A DNA stretch of 5,474 nucleotides from a virus (IMGVR_UViG_2684622670_000024:1-5474); one strand, 5' to 3'. Counted from the stretch's first letter, positions 1-5,474 are shown. Numbers and translations are program-made. Notes: generated by a model not told the origin, from the letters alone.

Positions 1-417
1 GATTCACATAACCCACTGATTTTTGTCAGTTAAAAACAAATTTACACGTAGCAATTTATCAAAAGTGATACACCGAATGATATACGGATCGATACACAGC
101 GCCACAATCTCAAAAAAGCACCAGCACAATTAGAAGGCCGCGAGTATACAACATCAGAAACAGGAGAGGGCAAAGCACGTAATAATTTTCGTTTTTCACA
201 AACGCAAAAATTTGGCGAGGCTGGCGGTCCCGGCAACATGAAGCTACATAGATTTTGATCCCCTGCATGGTGATGATGCCCATACAGGGCTATTTCATTT
301 CAACGGAACCAGTATGACGAACATGATCGCACCTTCTCCCGAAAACGGTGCGACCTCCATAGAGGAAATGCCTATTCAGATCCCCGGTGATTTTCACCAT
401 TCAGAATCTGGAGGGTG

Positions 418-433
418 AGTTTTCCAGTTTTCC
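418..433 (+). repeat. Tandem direct repeat AGTTTTCC x2, with related GTTTYC motifs at 582-589, 728-736 and 793-802
   Basis: AGTTTTCC at 418-425 and 426-433. GGTTTCCG (582-589), GGTTTCCCC (728-736) and GGTTTCTTCC (793-802) each lie beside an IHF-consensus site. Confidence 0.4.
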
Positions 434-453
434 CCAATGGGGGATTCTGGAAC

Positions 454-466
454 AATCAACGGGTTA
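454..466 (+). promoter_or_regulatory. IHF core-consensus match (AATCAACGGGTTA), site D
   Basis: Exact fit to WATCARNNNNTTR. The 13-mer is identical to site B except for the first base; it lacks the upstream CGAAAA tract. Confidence 0.4.
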
Positions 467-587
467 CGCCTTACCAGCAAAAAAGCACATCAACTGTAAC
501 GGAAATCGTTATGGCTGCTGGTGGGCCAAATCATCATTACGGTGATGCAGCTATGTAGACGTTCCGGTCTCCTCAAATCGAGGTTTC

Positions 588-606
588 CGAAAATATCAGT
601 GAGTTA
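588..606 (+). promoter_or_regulatory. IHF core-consensus match with upstream A-tract (CGAAAATATCAGTGAGTTA), site A
   Basis: TATCAGTGAGTTA fits WATCARNNNNTTR (R=G); preceded by the CGAAAA tract shared with sites B and C. Confidence 0.45.
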
Positions 607-628
607 GCGATTAAGCTGGCGAGTAATT

Positions 629-651
629 AAACTACGAAAATTTCGTAGTTT
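629..651. repeat. Perfect 23-bp palindrome AAACTACGAAA-A-TTTCGTAGTTT (11-1-11)
   Basis: Arms 629-639 and 641-651 are exact reverse complements. AT-rich; shares CGAAAAT with the IHF-site flank. Looks like a dimeric-protein operator rather than a terminator (no GC-rich stem or U-tract). Confidence 0.6.
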
Positions 652-653
652 GT

Positions 654-672
654 GACTATCTGAAAGATAGTC
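654..672. repeat. Perfect inverted repeat GACTATC-TGAAA-GATAGTC (7-5-7)
   Basis: Arms 654-660 and 666-672 are exact reverse complements; it lies 2 bp from the 23-bp palindrome. Confidence 0.55.
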
Positions 673-703
673 GGTTGATCCGGCCTCAGCCGTTGGCTGT
701 TCC

Positions 704-722
704 CGAAAATATCAACGGGTTA
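704..722 (+). promoter_or_regulatory. IHF core-consensus match with upstream A-tract (CGAAAATATCAACGGGTTA), site B
   Basis: TATCAACGGGTTA is an exact fit to WATCAANNNNTTR; the A-rich 5' flank resembles high-affinity IHF sites. Flanked by the inverted CCCG...CGGG. Confidence 0.5.
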
Positions 723-757
723 GGCTGGTTTCCCCGATGTTCGCCGCTGGCGAATTT

Positions 758-776
758 CGAAAATATCAACCAGTTA
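758..776 (+). promoter_or_regulatory. IHF core-consensus match with upstream A-tract (CGAAAATATCAACCAGTTA), site C
   Basis: TATCAACCAGTTA is an exact fit; it overlaps the 8-bp palindrome TTTCGAAA (755-762) and the stop codon of the 96-aa ORF. Confidence 0.5.
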
Positions 777-1064
777 CCGCCGTAACCGTTCCGGTTTCTT
801 CCAGTGGTAAGTATTTTTCGCGCTCTCCCTCCGTTGCTGAGAACGGCGACGACATGCCAGCAACTCGAGAACTCTGGTTCGTATGTTGCGCATATCCACG
901 CCGTTAAGCTCGATACCGTCACGGCGCATCACCTCAGCCACTACACGCGCGTAATTTTCGGCTATCACGCTGTCCGGCTGCGTGGCCTGTTCGTCATGCT
1001 GCTGGCTGATTCCGGTAACGCGGCGGATTATTTTTAGTAGTTCGGTTTCGCTCATTCTCGTCAT
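774..1064 (-). CDS. Hypothetical protein, translationally coupled to terL; function unknown
   Basis: 96 aa (MTRMSETELLKIIRRVTGISQQHDEQ...RRRSQQRRESAKNTYHWKKPERLRR). ATG at 1062-1064 overlaps the TerL stop (ATGA). Same strand as the operon, helical-looking body with a strongly basic C-terminal tail. I do not recognise a family. Its stop codon (774-776) coincides with the TTA of an IHF-consensus site. Confidence 0.5.
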   Translation of the reverse strand: MTRMSETELLKIIRRVTGISQQHDEQATQPDSVIAENYARVVAEVMRRDGIELNGVDMRNIRTRVLELLACRRRSQQRRESAKNTYHWKKPERLRR

Positions 1065-2722
1065 ACCCCATCAAACGCCGCAAGCCGCTCTTTGTGGCTG
1101 TCGCTTATATCAAATGCAAATTCCTCATGCTCTGCCTGGAATGTGCCAAACGCCATCAGCGCCGCAACGCTCGGATCTATCTTGTTGGATGATTTTTTCT
1201 TGTTCGGCTTGATATTGGCGTTCGCGTCACTCTGCATCACAACATTACTCATTGACCAGGCCAGCACCGGATCACCACGATGCACAATCACCTTCCGGTT
1301 AACAAAAACTTCGAACGATTTCGCCGCCGGACTGAAACGAAGGTATGTTTGCGGGAACGGCTCCACCTCAAATCCTGCGCCCTGTAGCTGCGTCCTCAGG
1401 TGCGTGGCGTTCCATGTATCGAAGCCCACCAGTCTGATATTGAAATTCTCTGCATCCGCCATGATGTCATCGCGGATACGGTCATAATCAATGCAGTCAC
1501 CCGGTGTTGTGCGTATCCAGCCCGCCTTTGCCCACTGGCGATAGATGGCGCGGTTTTTATTGGCGGGGTTCTGTAGCTGAAATTCCGGCAGATAGTGACG
1601 GGAAACCAGCATAATCTTTTTACCGACCGGAAAGGCATAGCACACGCTGGAAATATCGCTGGTTGATGATAAGTCCAGCCCCGCGTAGCACTCCTGCCCG
1701 TATAAATCCGCCTCCGCGAACGTTCCGGCGCACTCCGCCCATGCACCGTTACCCATCCACGGCGTAGCCCCCTGACACCAGATATTGAATCGCTTGGTGA
1801 GCATTTCCACCCACTGCGACGGAATACCCCGCGCTTTCTGGATGGTTGAGGCCAGTTTTTCACGATCGACGGAAACATCGATATTGGGATTCGCCTTTAT
1901 CCACATCGCCGGATCGTCAACCTCGCTTTCATCATCCAGCTCGTAAATAAGCACGAACATGGATTCGTTCACCTCTTCACCATCCAGTATCTGGCAGCAA
2001 TAGTCGTAGTGTTGTTTACAGGCTGAAACAACGTTGCTCCCCGATGTGGTGATGGCAAATAATAACCCCTCCGGACGCGCCCCCATTCCCAGTTCAAGCG
2101 CGGAATAAACCCCGTTGTCAGGGTGCAGGTGATATTCATCCACAATGGCGAGACTCGGGTTTGTCCCCTCAATGGTTGCCGCTTTTGCTGCCAGTGGCTT
2201 TAACAGGCTGTTGGTTTTCGGGTGTATCACCTTGTGCGCCTGAATATTTACCCGCTTTCGTAACGGTCGGGATAAAAGGCACATCTGACGCGCATCATCA
2301 AACACGATCCGCGCCTGATCACGACTCACGGCGGCGGTGTAAATATCCTGCTGCCCGTGTTCCATAACCAGAAACCAGTTAGCCAGGATAGCGGCGACCG
2401 TGGATTTGGCATTTTTTCGCGGTACTTCAATGAATGCGCTGGTGTATTTGCGCCGTCCGGTGGCCTTAACCTTAAAGCCCAGGATGCAGGCAAAGGCGAA
2501 CTGCTGCCACGGCTCCAGCTCAATGGGGCTACCGCGCATTGCGCCTTTTACGTGCGGACACACCCTGGAAAAGGCAATAAACCGCTCCACGACCTCCGGA
2601 TCGAACGTGTAAAGGGGGTTTTCAAGGTCAGAAAAATACCGTTTAACGGCCTGTTTCAGTCGTTTACAGGCCGTAATTTTGCCGTTTTTTACGCCTTCTG
2701 CGTACTCATGCCAGGCGGTCAA
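1061..2722 (-). CDS. terL: Terminase large subunit (ATPase + nuclease)
   Basis: 553 aa. Deviant Walker A (EVPRKNAKST), Walker B (LAIVDEYH, hydrophobic run + DE), and a C-terminal RNase-H-like nuclease region with acidic residues in GLDLSSTSD, VGFDTWNA and KIDPSVAALMA. The only in-frame start candidate after the upstream stop (TAA 2765-2767) is TTG at 2720-2722, preceded by a strong SD (GAGGAAGAGGA) and lying 17 nt inside the 3' end of terS. Stop TGA 1061-1063 overlaps the ATG of the next ORF. Confidence 0.9.
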   Translation of the reverse strand: MTAWHEYAEGVKNGKITACKRLKQAVKRYFSDLENPLYTFDPEVVERFIAFSRVCPHVKGAMRGSPIELEPWQQFAFACILGFKVKATGRRKYTSAFIEVPRKNAKSTVAAILANWFLVMEHGQQDIYTAAVSRDQARIVFDDARQMCLLSRPLRKRVNIQAHKVIHPKTNSLLKPLAAKAATIEGTNPSLAIVDEYHLHPDNGVYSALELGMGARPEGLLFAITTSGSNVVSACKQHYDYCCQILDGEEVNESMFVLIYELDDESEVDDPAMWIKANPNIDVSVDREKLASTIQKARGIPSQWVEMLTKRFNIWCQGATPWMGNGAWAECAGTFAEADLYGQECYAGLDLSSTSDISSVCYAFPVGKKIMLVSRHYLPEFQLQNPANKNRAIYRQWAKAGWIRTTPGDCIDYDRIRDDIMADAENFNIRLVGFDTWNATHLRTQLQGAGFEVEPFPQTYLRFSPAAKSFEVFVNRKVIVHRGDPVLAWSMSNVVMQSDANANIKPNKKKSSNKIDPSVAALMAFGTFQAEHEEFAFDISDSHKERLAAFDGV

Positions 2723-3062
2723 GCTCGTCCTCTTCCTCTGTTTCCGGTGGATTTCTGCGGCGGCTTACCGGGTCAAAACCCAGCAAAGAAGCCATTTTGA
2801 TCATTATTCTTTCTGCGTCAGCCTTTGCGCTCAGGGCGGGGTTTCTGCTCTCGCTGCCCTGACTGTTAACAATGCTGAACCCGCGCGTCGCAAGGTCTTC
2901 GACGGCTTTGCGGTATATAGAGTAGTTAACGCAATACAGTTCCAGATTGCTCCAGTCGGCGGGGGTAAGGTCTTCCCGCCCGGAAAGCTGGCGCGATTTT
3001 TCCTTCCACTGCCTGACCGCGATTTCATCCAGGTAAGCGGGGGCTTTTGGTGGTCTTGCCAT
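2706..3062 (-). CDS. terS: Terminase small subunit, P27-family-like (start placed at the internal ATG 3060-3062; the six-frame ORF extends to an ATG at 3201-3203)
   Basis: From the internal Met the product is 118 aa beginning MARPPKAPAYLDEIAVRQWKE..., which matches the M-x-(G)RPPK N-terminus and size typical of P27-family small terminases. The 47-aa upstream extension (MFSQSLVRPSEGVGEVFRTKPPLPDTDRLLKFLCTGIFLKIIGRKKN) is not protein-like to my eye, but the ATG at 3201-3203 has a better SD (GAGGT, 6-nt spacing) than the ATG at 3060-3062. Acidic C-terminal tail ...PETEEEDELDRLA. Stop TGA at 2706-2708. Confidence 0.7.
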   Translation of the reverse strand: MARPPKAPAYLDEIAVRQWKEKSRQLSGREDLTPADWSNLELYCVNYSIYRKAVEDLATRGFSIVNSQGSESRNPALSAKADAERIMIKMASLLGFDPVSRRRNPPETEEEDELDRLA

Positions 3063-3350
3063 GTTCTTTTTTCGCCCAATTATTTTCAAAAAAATTCCCG
3101 TGCACAAAAATTTGAGGAGGCGGTCGGTGTCCGGCAGGGGCGGTTTCGTCCTGAAAACCTCCCCCACCCCCTCTGACGGCCTCACCAGCGATTGCGAAAA
3201 CATTCCATGACCTCGCGGTCACGGTCGGTTAATCGCTTCGCTGTGGTGCGTTCTGTGCGCTCTGTCCTGTTGGCTTTGTGCCCTGTCTCCTGTGTCTTCC
3301 ATAAGTCACGCTGCCTTATCAGTCCACGTATCAGCCTGTTTTGCTCCTGT
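3063..3350 (-). promoter_or_regulatory. Structured HNH-terS intergenic region; candidate cos / terminase-recognition region
   Basis: About 288 bp non-coding if terS starts at 3062. Contains a CTGT-rich block (eight CTGT in 3241-3350; ACAG(G) on the coding strand), an imperfect dyad GACC-TCGC-GGTC (3209-3220) flanked by inverted AGCGATT (3187-3193) / AATCGCT (3231-3237), and a C5-A-C5 tract (3161-3171). In HK97-like phages cos lies between the HNH gene and terS. Confidence 0.4.
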
Positions 3351-3791
3351 TCAGTCATCATCGCCATACATCCAGTCGTTACGATGTGCCGCCCGTTCTT
3401 CCTGCTCGCGATACATGCCCGCCTTACGGTTCGCTTTCGTGGCTGGATCTTCCCGTGTCGTCTTACGGTTGTGGCACGTCTGGCACAATGCCTGGTGGTT
3501 CCACTCAGGCCAGAAGAGAACATCACCGCCGCCATTGATGGGAATGATGTGATCCACCACAAGAGCTGGCGTATAAATACCCTTAGCCAGACAACGCACG
3601 CATAACGGATTTTTTTTCAGGTACAGGGCGCGGTATTTGTCCCACAGTCGGGAATACCCACGTGCGCGGCGGTGTCCCCGTCTGGCATCCTCTGCACGCC
3701 ATGCAGCCCGCCTGTGCTCTTCACACTTGCCGGACTTCACGCGCTTATTACAGCCCGGCTCAGTGCATCGCCTTAATGGTTGCCATGGCAT
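3351..3791 (-). CDS. HNH endonuclease, terminase-associated type
   Basis: 146 aa; N-terminal Cys cluster (RCTEPGCNKRV...GKCEEH) and a classic HNH core (VVDHIIPINGGGD ... WNHQALCQTCHNRKT). It sits immediately upstream of the small terminase, the arrangement known for HNH proteins that assist cos-cleaving terminases in HK97-like phages. Possible SD GGGGGTG about 7 nt upstream of the ATG. Confidence 0.88.
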   Translation of the reverse strand: MPWQPLRRCTEPGCNKRVKSGKCEEHRRAAWRAEDARRGHRRARGYSRLWDKYRALYLKKNPLCVRCLAKGIYTPALVVDHIIPINGGGDVLFWPEWNHQALCQTCHNRKTTREDPATKANRKAGMYREQEERAAHRNDWMYGDDD

Positions 3792-4087
3792 CAGTACACC
3801 CCCACATCACGATAAACCGACCAGAGCGCGGAAATCGTCAGGGGAATTTCTTTTGTATCGGTATCGCCAAGCGTTGTCCGGTACTCGTACAGTTGCGAGA
3901 TATACATCAGGCAACCAATTTTTATTGCAGGGGTAAATTCCAGGCCGTCATCAAAACGCCTGCCAATATGCTTCTGGCATACCTCCAGCGCCGCGCTTAT
4001 GTATGCCTGAATCAGTGTGTCTTCTGTGTTACCATCTATGCGGCAGTGAAGTTTGGCCTCTTCCAGGGTTATTTTTTCTGCTGTCAT
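3791..4087 (-). CDS. Phage gp6-like head-tail connector protein
   Basis: 98 aa; N-terminal ...ITLEEAKLHCRIDGNTEDTLIQAYISAALEVCQKHIGR... fits the gp6-like connector pattern (L-E-x-A-K-x-H-x-R-I-D, then D/E-D-x-L-I-x-x-Y-I-x-A-A). ATG 4085-4087 overlaps the upstream stop; stop TGA 3791-3793 shares one base with the HNH ATG (3789-3791; TGATG junction on the coding strand). Confidence 0.78.
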   Translation of the reverse strand: MTAEKITLEEAKLHCRIDGNTEDTLIQAYISAALEVCQKHIGRRFDDGLEFTPAIKIGCLMYISQLYEYRTTLGDTDTKEIPLTISALWSVYRDVGVY

Positions 4088-4422
4088 TTTTCTGTACCCA
4101 CCTTTGCCAGAATTTCCAGCCGGGTTCTTTTCGCATCAGGTAAGGGGATCCCGATGATATTAAGCGTGCTCCCGGCAAAAGCGCCGGTAAGCACTTTCAG
4201 GCGACTGGCGGCGGATATGTCGCCACGATAGCGAACCCATACCCGAATCGTTGCAGGTGCGGTTTCTGCGCCTGCGGTCAGCAATTCCCGTCCGCTGATC
4301 CCCTTGACCTCTGCCCAGATGGTTTCCCCTTCCGTCCATATCTGCTGGATCGCACCTGACGGCAGGCGCTGTGTGGTAAATGTCATAATCGTCACCCGGT
4401 CCCGCATCTTTCCGGCTATCAT
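4084..4422 (-). CDS. Phage head-closure / head-tail adaptor protein (head-tail joining family)
   Basis: 112 aa; N-terminal MxxGKMRDRVTI... is the signature opening of head-tail joining/head-closure proteins as I recall them. ATG at 4420-4422 overlaps the portal stop (ATGA arrangement); its own stop TGA at 4084-4086 overlaps the next ATG (4085-4087). Confidence 0.75.
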   Translation of the reverse strand: MIAGKMRDRVTIMTFTTQRLPSGAIQQIWTEGETIWAEVKGISGRELLTAGAETAPATIRVWVRYRGDISAASRLKVLTGAFAGSTLNIIGIPLPDAKRTRLEILAKVGTEK

Positions 4423-5474
4423 TCGTCACCGCCCTTACTGTTCTTGCTGATTGTCACTTCCTGCTTCCATGCCTGGCTGAACTCGTCACCACCTTCACGC
4501 GGCGGCATCCCCTCACGCTCACGGGCTTCGTTCGGATTCATGATCCCGTTCTTAATCCCTTTCTCATACGTGGCGTAACGTTCGGTAGGGGTGGCGCGCA
4601 GTAAATCGGCTGAATCAAACTCAACCAGATAACGGGTACCAGGTACGGGAGAAGCCATCAGCAAAGCAGCCTTGATTTGCTGTTCGAAGTTCGCCAGCCA
4701 CGGGCGCATTGTCATGGTCAGAAACGCGCGGCTTGCCTCACTGAAATTGCTGTAGGTGCTGTTGCTGTATTCCTGAAGAAAAATCGGCGACACGTTGAAC
4801 ATACGAGCAATGTCTTCAATGGAGAAGCGACGGGAGGCCAGCCATTCCGCATCCTGGTTACTCATCCCCAGTTGCTTGTAATCCATGCCCCCTTCAAGGA
4901 TTGGCGTTTTTCCGGCATTTTTCGCCCCCTTATAGCGTTCCAGAGCATCTAATGCCTGTTTACCTTTCACGCCGTCCAGCCATTCGCCTGACGTGATAAT
5001 CCCTGCCGCCATCATGCCATCTTTCATAATGCTGGCTCCGTGACGCTGTTGAGCAAGGCCAAGCCCAAGTGCCTCACGGCAAATCGTGACAGGGGAGCGC
5101 CCCAGAAAGCCATCATCCGAGGCATAGCGGAGATGCAGAACTTCTTCCTGTAAATACGTGCGCACCGTTCCTGTATAGGGTTCGGTGATGGTATAGCGGT
5201 ATTTGTGTGCGCCTGTGCGTTCCGGTACAACACAACCCGGTGCATAAGGATGAAGTGATTTTGGCTGACCGTCCCGCCCCCACTCAATAACCGCATAGGC
5301 GTTACCGTTCAGCAGGCAGTGACGCATCATTGTGCGTTTAAACTGGTAAGGTGTCTGGCATGAATTTGGCTGCTCATTCAGCAGAATATCTACCGGGTGA
5401 CTGTCCAGCCATTCCCGCGCCTCCCTGCCCTTGTCATTACGTACCAGATACAGATAACACGGCATCGTGGCCAC
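4419..5474 (-). CDS. Phage portal protein (HK97-family-like), 5'-partial; the ORF runs off the right edge of the window, so the true N-terminus is not in view
   Basis: 351 aa visible. Central and C-terminal segments (e.g. ...DAEWLASRRFSIEDIARMFNVSPIFLQEYSNSTYSNFSEASRAFLTMTMRPWLANFEQQI... and ...RYLVEFDSADLLRATPTERYATYEKGIKNGIMNPNEAREREGMPP...) match what I recall of the conserved core and C-terminal region of HK97-type portal proteins. Stop TGA at 4419-4421 overlaps the next gene's ATG (4420-4422). The first codon in the window is GTG, which is not the real start. Confidence 0.82.
   Translation of the reverse strand: MATMPCYLYLVRNDKGREAREWLDSHPVDILLNEQPNSCQTPYQFKRTMMRHCLLNGNAYAVIEWGRDGQPKSLHPYAPGCVVPERTGAHKYRYTITEPYTGTVRTYLQEEVLHLRYASDDGFLGRSPVTICREALGLGLAQQRHGASIMKDGMMAAGIITSGEWLDGVKGKQALDALERYKGAKNAGKTPILEGGMDYKQLGMSNQDAEWLASRRFSIEDIARMFNVSPIFLQEYSNSTYSNFSEASRAFLTMTMRPWLANFEQQIKAALLMASPVPGTRYLVEFDSADLLRATPTERYATYEKGIKNGIMNPNEAREREGMPPREGGDEFSQAWKQEVTISKNSKGGDE

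Follow-up and report, generated by a model that had tools for sequence, protein, structure and literature searches.

The closest described system to the stretch of DNA analysed here, IMGVR_UViG_2684622670_000024:1-5474 (5474 nt, the whole of which is called the window), is EcCIEDL933 of Escherichia coli O157:H7 EDL933, a capsid-forming phage-inducible chromosomal island (cf-PICI). EcCIEDL933 measures 15.4 kb, is devoid of tail genes and carries int, alpA, rep, capsid, protease, portal, head-tail connectors, HNH, TerS and TerL (10.1101/2022.09.08.507074). The conserved order of proteobacterial cf-PICIs has been given as 'capsid-protease-portal-head connectors' followed by 'hnh-terS-terL' (Alqurainy et al., 10.1101/2022.09.08.507074). 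Mutation of the packaging-module genes of EcCIEDL933, HNH among them, abolishes island transfer and leaves replication and the helper phage unaffected, the one exception being 'hypothetical gene 1792', whose mutant is severely impaired in transfer; helper tail mutants also abolish the transfer, and the small capsids are island-made (10.1101/2022.09.08.507074). The cf-PICI capsid is of T=4 symmetry and HK97-fold, and is matured by proteolysis. The alleles of adaptor and connector decide which phage tails fit, the adaptor being the published determinant of helper-tail compatibility. In SatelliteFinder the cfPICI model consists of 11 core components and forbids tails and holins, and the tally of the program stands at 969 cfPICIs (13% of Enterobacteriaceae genomes; median size, 14 kb). 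The names of the two vertex proteins are in conflict, as the 'adaptor' of the cf-PICI authors is the PF05521 protein, which is head closure Hc1 in PHROGs, and their 'connector' is the PF05135 protein, which is adaptor Ad1 in PHROGs; closure (or adaptor) and connector are used here in the sense of the cf-PICI authors.

The window is in all likelihood the right-hand, DNA-packaging end of an integrated cf-PICI of the EcCIEDL933 family, with a probability of about 0.93. It holds seven of the nine genes of the cf-PICI packaging operon, namely portal, closure ('adaptor'), gp6-like 'connector', HNH, a 61-aa protein, TerS and TerL, followed by a 96-aa open reading frame (ORF) and a structured non-coding tail (Table 1). 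Every sizeable ORF lies on the minus strand. The portal, closure and connector of the island are recognised by PF04860, PF05521 and PF05135 with PHROG and NCBIfam support, and its HNH, TerS and TerL by PF01844, PF05119, PF03354 and PF20441; the portal-to-TerL part of the conserved proteobacterial order is thereby read directly in the window. The right edge falls inside the portal gene, leaving 351 of about 404-407 aa and cutting the N-terminal ~55 aa, as evident from the full-length portals of two close relatives, L001 and L002. All the ORFs of the window are intact and as long as their counterparts in EcCIEDL933, the functional prototype. Six of the 11 core components of the SatelliteFinder model are seen directly, and every close relative has the remaining five; integrase, AlpA-type regulator and primase/replicase lie beyond the window edge and are found in L001, L002 and EcCIEDL933. 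ORF calls, Pfam and PHROG revealed no tail, holin or lysis gene among the ORFs of the window.

A preliminary description of this DNA had read the order portal, adaptor, connector, HNH, TerS and TerL, and the family matches bear it out, the 351-, 112- and 98-aa proteins being homologues of portal, adaptor and connector in the homology searches as well. The gene overlaps that it reported were confirmed when the junctions were read base by base, with ATGA at portal/closure and at closure/connector, and TGATG at connector/HNH. The overlap between TerS and TerL amounts to 17 nt, and the 96-aa ORF is translationally coupled to TerL through a further ATGA.

From the capsid to the ORF after TerL, the order of EcCIEDL933 (L004, ~25330-40600) is identical to that of the window and its relatives, gene for gene. 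EcCIEDL933 shares the small ORF between HNH and TerS, a 93-aa ORF after TerL, the conserved element upstream of terS and the hairpin motif downstream of terL, and the lengths of closure, connector, HNH, TerS and TerL are equal (112/112, 98/98, 146/146, 118/118 and 553/553 aa). The identities to the window are 82.7% for portal, 53.6% for closure, 68.4% for connector, 82.9% for HNH, 80.0% for the small ORF, 88.9% for TerS, 93.7% for TerL and 76.3% for the last ORF. The closure is the most divergent protein of the module, with a family median of 42%. Identities of 54% for closure and 68% for connector, as compared to 83-94% for portal, HNH, TerS and TerL, point to a different tail-compatibility allele. 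The prototype further differs in its integration site (roxA|phoQ as against hpt) and in its replicase, which is of the DUF927 type, and of the RepA/AAA_25 type in the closest relatives of the window. KpCIDSM30104 (K. pneumoniae ATCC 13883/DSM 30104) and the near-identical vB_KppS-Ant also have the module and order of the window, with identities of 82% for TerL, 85% for TerS, 78% for connector and only 40% for adaptor; they carry a D5-type primase, and a 765-aa accessory gene after TerL replaces the 96-aa ORF.

The DNA of the window matches 1538 of 5426 complete E. coli genomes, with at least 80% window coverage in 175 of them and a best identity of 98.1%. The closest relatives, 96-98% identical, are islands of 14.6-15.3 kb between direct repeats and core genes, of which that of L001 lies at the 5' end of hpt (hpt|gcd) and that of L002 inside yifB/comM. 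Both begin with int, AlpA regulator, icd-like gene, DUF4222, RepA helicase, SSB and ProQ-like gene, and continue with major capsid, HK97 protease, portal, closure (where present), connector, HNH, 61-aa ORF, TerS, TerL and a ~95-aa ORF. No tail or lysis gene was found within the ~15 kb bounded by the attachment (att) sites in L001 and L002, and core genes stand on both sides. The left arm of the relatives was identified by Pfam (integrase PF00589; AlpA PF05930, 3e-18; RepA/AAA_25, 7.5e-43). The HK97-fold capsid (PF05065, 2e-71) and the S78 protease (PF04586, 9e-46) lie directly upstream of the portal in L002, and the two genes hold this place in every relative with enough sequence. In the window no protease or capsid gene stands between portal and connectors, as noted in the preliminary description, and both genes are predicted to lie directly upstream of the portal, just beyond the window edge; the reading of the stretch as a capsid-forming satellite in that description holds, given the ~15 kb relatives with int, alpA and replicase, the same order in EcCIEDL933 and the published conserved order. 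Directly downstream of the RepA helicase gene of L001 (24625-24842), iterated TTTTACTCCCCACTTTTT-type repeats are observed, which are probably the replication origin of the island.

The conservation of this order was followed by a TerL-anchored scan of one genome per species, which gave 80 loci in about 30 genera, among them Shigella, Klebsiella, Enterobacter, Proteus, Xenorhabdus, Photorhabdus, Serratia, Yersinia, Pantoea, Erwinia, Aeromonas, Pasteurellaceae and Gilliamella. In the 63 loci holding portal, connector and TerL, the order capsid-protease-portal-(closure)-connector-HNH-(small ORF)-TerS-TerL was recorded without exception. The gene order is hence a fixed, family-wide cf-PICI arrangement and not a local rearrangement. 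The family median identity to the window is 42% for adaptor, 61% for connector and 78% for both TerS and TerL. Adaptor and connector also differ between modules which are otherwise 98-99% identical: L001 has a connector 60% identical to that of the window and no closure gene, and its HNH, TerS and TerL are 98-99% identical. Such swapping agrees with the published modular exchange. In ten of the 63 loci (L001, L016, L019, L028, L033, L046, L058, L064, L065 and L076) only -4 to 61 nt separate portal and gp6-like gene. This leaves no room for a closure gene, and these loci therefore form a subset of cf-PICIs without head closure ('adaptor'), as seen in the L001 stretch 19087-20593.

The autonomous phage HK97 (NC_002167) shares the protein families of the module, i.e. 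the P27/HK97-type terminase, HK97 portal, S78 protease, HK97-fold capsid, gp6-like Ad1, Hc1 and HNH, in the order cos-terS-terL-portal-protease-capsid-Ad1-Hc1-...tails...-HNH-cos. The cf-PICI order, in contrast, is capsid-protease-portal-Hc1-Ad1-HNH-small ORF-cos-terS-terL, in which the head genes precede HNH and are internally reversed; a cf-PICI measures ~15 kb as compared to 39.7 kb of HK97 and is devoid of tail, lysis and immunity genes. The placing of the closure gene ahead of the gp6-like gene in the window, the reverse of HK97, was already pointed out in the preliminary description, and the comparison with HK97 agrees. A lambdoid prophage ~25 kb from EcCIEDL933 (L004, 1-7000) shows the phage order portal-connector-closure-gp10-gp17-major tail, which contrasts with the closure-then-connector order of the island. 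The arrangement is non-canonical for HK97-like phages and canonical for cf-PICIs. It is the published hallmark of a routinely detected family whose genetics and structure have already been characterised, and the novelty implied earlier exists only relative to phages. The additions to what is already known are modest, and consist of the probable placement of cos, what is probably the ninth module gene in the supposed gap and an unexplained hairpin block.

The interval between HNH and terS, earlier taken as a gap, contains the conserved 61-aa ORF and a 119-nt non-coding element. The ORF was found by tblastn in 27 loci of several genera, and its C-terminus (...REVMECFRNRW) is kept through synonymous changes; Pfam, NCBIfam and further family searches gave no match to it. 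It is probably the homologue of 'hypothetical gene 1792' of EcCIEDL933, the ninth gene of the packaging module, because counting onward from the capsid (gene 1786) through a module of nine genes leads to it. The start of TerS lies at 3062 (ATGGCAAGA) and is kept in all genera in the alignment of loci. The start at ATG 3203 assumed previously was rejected, as the resulting 165-aa ORF reads through the conserved non-coding element and would give TerS a spurious N-terminus of 47 aa. This extension matches phrog_32378 (unknown function, 2.6e-11), which suggests that certain phage records carry an annotated small ORF in place of this conserved DNA.

Cohesive ends have been reported for cf-PICI DNA, and the descriptions compared state them with no cos site mapped. 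The 119-nt element was aligned over 68 distinct loci, from Escherichia to Pasteurellaceae and Gilliamella, and shows the conserved blocks GGGGT-GGGGG, GACAAA and ACCGcCCcCcTCCTcAAATTTTTAcGCAcGGcAATTTTTTTGAAAATA. Its bin 3131-3102 has a conservation of 0.86, joint-highest in the HNH-to-TerL stretch and exceeded by no coding bin. Two particle- or lysate-derived assemblies, vB_KppS-Ant and P12620-1, break inside the HNH-terS interval. The former breaks off at ...GGGGTGGGGGAGGTTTTCAGGAC and resumes ~30 nt ahead of terS with a core of ~75 nt left out, the core being shorter or absent in the deposited record (L003); the cf-PICI part of the latter starts at codon 2 of terS and ends 4-5 nt ahead of the stop of the small ORF. 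The conservation of the element, the two assembly breaks and the reported cohesive ends together support, though indirectly, a cos between HNH and terS, which was the premise of the preliminary description, and the most likely place for it is the 119-nt element. Packaged DNA would therefore start with terS-terL and end with portal-closure-connector-HNH-small ORF. Contigs of IMG/VR were also considered for the physical termini that they might show, but proved uninformative, as most of them are excerpts cut from isolate genomes in the manner of prophages and not one begins at terS.

The same gene content could have arisen by decay of an HK97-like prophage, in which tail, lysis and regulatory genes disappeared and the rest was rearranged internally, leaving a defective remnant. 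Such an origin would fit the membership of all the module proteins in HK97-type phage families, as well as the presence of an integrase and the location at a chromosomal att site. Random decay, however, would not yield a compact architecture of ~15 kb with one order in 63 of 63 informative loci across ~30 genera, nor is it consistent with intact ORFs of prototype length. TerL of the window is at most 37% identical to that of any true phage, the left arm is the int-alpA-replicase backbone common to classical PICIs, and the prototype EcCIEDL933 is experimentally mobile. A defective remnant is thus very unlikely, and the rearranged prophage module offered as an alternative in the preliminary description is not supported. 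The finding named there as speaking against a satellite was a full-size prophage with protease and capsid directly upstream of the portal in a known conserved order; that order is indeed present in the relatives, but within satellites of 15 kb and not within a full-size prophage. Still less credible is a complete autonomous phage with a permuted head and packaging module. In the phage database only three records match the DNA of the window, all below 80% identity, and TerL relatives above 40% comprise vB_KppS-Ant, Pasteurella Pmp7 and Pmp8 (10-17 kb) and one record of 106 kb, the Klebsiella 'phage' P12620-1. These deposited phages would speak for autonomy, but vB_KppS-Ant is a 16.5 kb element with int, AlpA, D5-type primase and cf-PICI order, whose sole 'tail' label ('tail length tape measure protein') is on a 765-aa protein without a Pfam match. 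Pmp7 and Pmp8 measure merely 10.7 and 15.3 kb, and the cf-PICI of P12620-1 forms the last ~16 kb to the record end, abruptly after unrelated sequence, so that the record looks like a concatenated or chimeric assembly. Moreover, complete E. coli genomes show core genes on either side of the island within 15 kb, tail and lysis genes are missing from the att-bounded 15 kb of the relatives, and the order differs from that of HK97-like phages. Two 'phage' records are cf-PICIs, namely LR881103.1 (vB_KppS-Ant) and PQ569648.1 (76984-106503, last ~16 kb).

A classical, non-capsid-forming PICI or a P4-like satellite would redirect the capsids and terminase of a helper. Classical PICIs of the EcCICFT073 type (L087 and L088) have the int-alpA-icd-DUF4222-RepA-SSB backbone, the integrase and the att sites in common with cf-PICIs at the same loci, and share the terminal block with its ~95-aa phrog_1561 ORF and hairpin repeats, L087 being 99.7% identical to the window over 400-790. 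They carry, however, a lambda-E-like capsid-remodelling pair, Rpp or TerS and a lambda-like cos, and are without portal, protease, connectors, HNH and TerL. The window, in contrast, has genes of its own for portal, closure, connector, HNH and TerL, which define a cf-PICI and are forbidden in the PICI model; it contains no lambda cosN within 2 mismatches and no Rpp-sized winged helix-turn-helix (wHTH) protein, the 96-aa ORF being too short for Rpp (139-154 aa). An island of the classical or P4-like kind is refuted by these genes of the window itself, and is as improbable as an autonomous phage.

Some points weigh against the assignment of the window to a cf-PICI of the EcCIEDL933 family, or against its details. 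The capsid, protease, replicase, alpA and int of its own element are predicted from the relatives, and the induction, packaging and use of a helper by this allele are presumed by homology to the prototype. No database record is identical across the whole window, which is a mosaic with 1-714 being 99.6% identical to L001 and 772-5474 being 98.2% identical to L002. The position of cos within the 119-nt element is drawn from indirect signs, and the assembly breaks could stem from other causes such as the G-rich tract. The element and the HK97 cos look alike by eye only (G-run, GACCGCC..AAA, T7 run, then terS), and homology between the two was rejected because their local alignment scores 17, which is just the average obtained with dinucleotide shuffles, and 571 of 1000 shuffles reached or exceeded this score.

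Table 1. Features of the window, with the coordinates counted from its first base
Feature	Coordinates	Strand	Evidence or remark
Portal, HK97 family	5474..4419	minus	PF04860 Phage_portal 3.5e-87; phrog_12 8e-106; TIGR01537 portal_HK97 3.4e-68
Head closure protein	4422..4084	minus	PF05521 1e-18; phrog_25 1.5e-29; TIGR01563 gp16_SPP1; PHROG 'Hc1'
gp6-like head-tail connector	4087..3791	minus	PF05135 7.8e-12; phrog_40 1.5e-33; TIGR01560 1e-24; PHROG 'Ad1'
HNH endonuclease	3791..3351	minus	PF01844 8.8e-10; phrog_144 2.2e-44
Conserved 61-aa ORF	3367..3182	minus	RefSeq-annotated in L001, L002 and EDL933
Conserved non-coding element, 119 nt, putative cos	3181..3063	minus	Directly upstream of terS; GGGGTGGGGG ... 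GACGAAA ... ACCGACCGCCTCCTCAAATTTTTGTGCACGGGAATTTTTTTGAAAATA
TerS, P27 family, 118 aa	3062..2706	minus	PF05119 Terminase_4 4.2e-23; phrog_83 1.3e-38; TIGR01558 6.7e-18
TerL, 553 aa, TTG start	2722..1061	minus	PF03354 TerL_ATPase and PF20441 TerL_nuclease; phrog_9 2e-180
96-aa ORF after TerL	1064..774	minus	phrog_1561 6.9e-54, function unknown
Four ~45-nt paralogous hairpin units	423..777	minus	Repeat search; TAAC-N4-TGATATTTTCGG, then stem-loop
Two further hairpins	629-651 and 655-673	minus	Within the stretch 423..777
Terminal non-coding/accessory region	1..422		99.6% identity (window 1-714) to L001 15001-15714

The left end of the window is composed of the 96-aa ORF, the hairpin block and the terminal region. 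Pfam, NCBIfam, PADLOC and PDB gave no match to the 96-aa ORF, and its identification as Rpp, a family of wHTH proteins, was rejected on account of its length and the missing family match. The four hairpin units have conserved flanks, and their stems differ from copy to copy (CCCC/GGGG, CCTC/GAGG, CAGCC/GGCTG and TTCGCC/GGCGAA); the outer stem depends on G.U pairs in the minus-strand RNA alone, and the region has an RNA fold z of -4.8. The motif is limited to islands of Escherichia and Shigella, EcCIEDL933 included, always 300-760 nt downstream of terL and on the same strand, with roughly one such place in each genome; it is present at classical PICI ends, too. A general E. coli extragenic repeat was rejected as an explanation for the same reason, the single place being always at a PICI end. 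Integrase arm sites were likewise rejected, as the hairpins recur in islands whose integrases and att sites differ (L001, L002 and L004) and lie 420-780 nt from the core, and so was the presence in the terminal region of another PICI cos, of the lambda type, as this region has no match to lambda cosN at the threshold given above. The whole window was searched against Rfam at E <= 1 with no match, and a scan for promoters and terminators gave nothing above shuffles.

It is possible, though rather doubtful, that two cis readings hold jointly, by which the 119-nt element would be a cf-PICI cos kept from Enterobacterales to Pasteurellaceae and Orbaceae, and the four covarying hairpin units at 423-777, which stand between last gene and att in cf-PICIs and classical E. 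coli PICIs alike, an undescribed RNA-level insulator or processing signal. Such a signal might keep the late operon apart from attP-int, or else from the host gene hpt. The terminal block ends the classical PICIs L087 (17001-17660) and L088 (12001-12465), and therefore belongs to the shared PICI backbone. These two occupy the same sites as cf-PICIs, namely hpt|gcd, with an identical integrase, and roxA|phoQ, the site of EcCIEDL933, in O55:H7. It would thus appear that entire packaging modules are exchanged upon the common PICI backbone.

No convincing ORF and no family match were found in region 1..422. Base 1 of the window adjoins the start codon of hpt in the hpt-site relative L001, in which one copy of the 17-nt att core TCTACARTATGTTTCAT lies at the hpt 5' end and another beside int; by this likeness the island of the window probably sits at the 5' end of hpt. 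The L001 island (14984-15010 / 30287-30313; window 1-20) integrates into the first 17 nt of hpt. The integrated hpt has an island-derived 5' end, in which codon 4 is changed from ACT to ATT (Thr to Ile), and its upstream region is also island-derived; the native upstream region is displaced by ~15 kb, next to int, and the late operon and hpt are co-directional.

Helper-dependent induction, T=4 capsids and helper-tail transfer have been shown for EcCIEDL933 and KpCIDSM30104 only, and would extend to the window by homology. A helper prophage would induce the island, leading to its excision, replication and expression of the packaging operon, and the island-encoded capsid, protease and portal would build small T=4 heads. 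TerS and TerL, together with HNH, an accessory factor in the cleavage of cos by terminase, would cut the own cos of the island, most likely within 3181-3063. The packaged unit of ~15 kb would read terS-terL, att-int-alpA-replicase-capsid-protease-portal-closure-connector-HNH-small ORF, cos. Closure and connector would then complete the portal vertex and dock the tails stolen from the helper phage, their alleles setting which tails fit.

As cf-PICIs were described in 2022-2023 and are detected automatically by SatelliteFinder, the identification of one more has little discovery value. Its value lies in annotation, since automatic pipelines and some GenBank 'phage' records label cf-PICI islands as prophages or phages, and recognising the order capsid-protease-portal-closure-connector-HNH-small ORF-cos-terS-terL prevents such mislabelling. 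The divergent adaptor and connector allele of the window (54 and 68% identical to the prototype, respectively) suggests a helper-tail specificity different from that of EcCIEDL933, which would bear on the host range and on horizontal transfer by the tail-less capsids of cf-PICIs.

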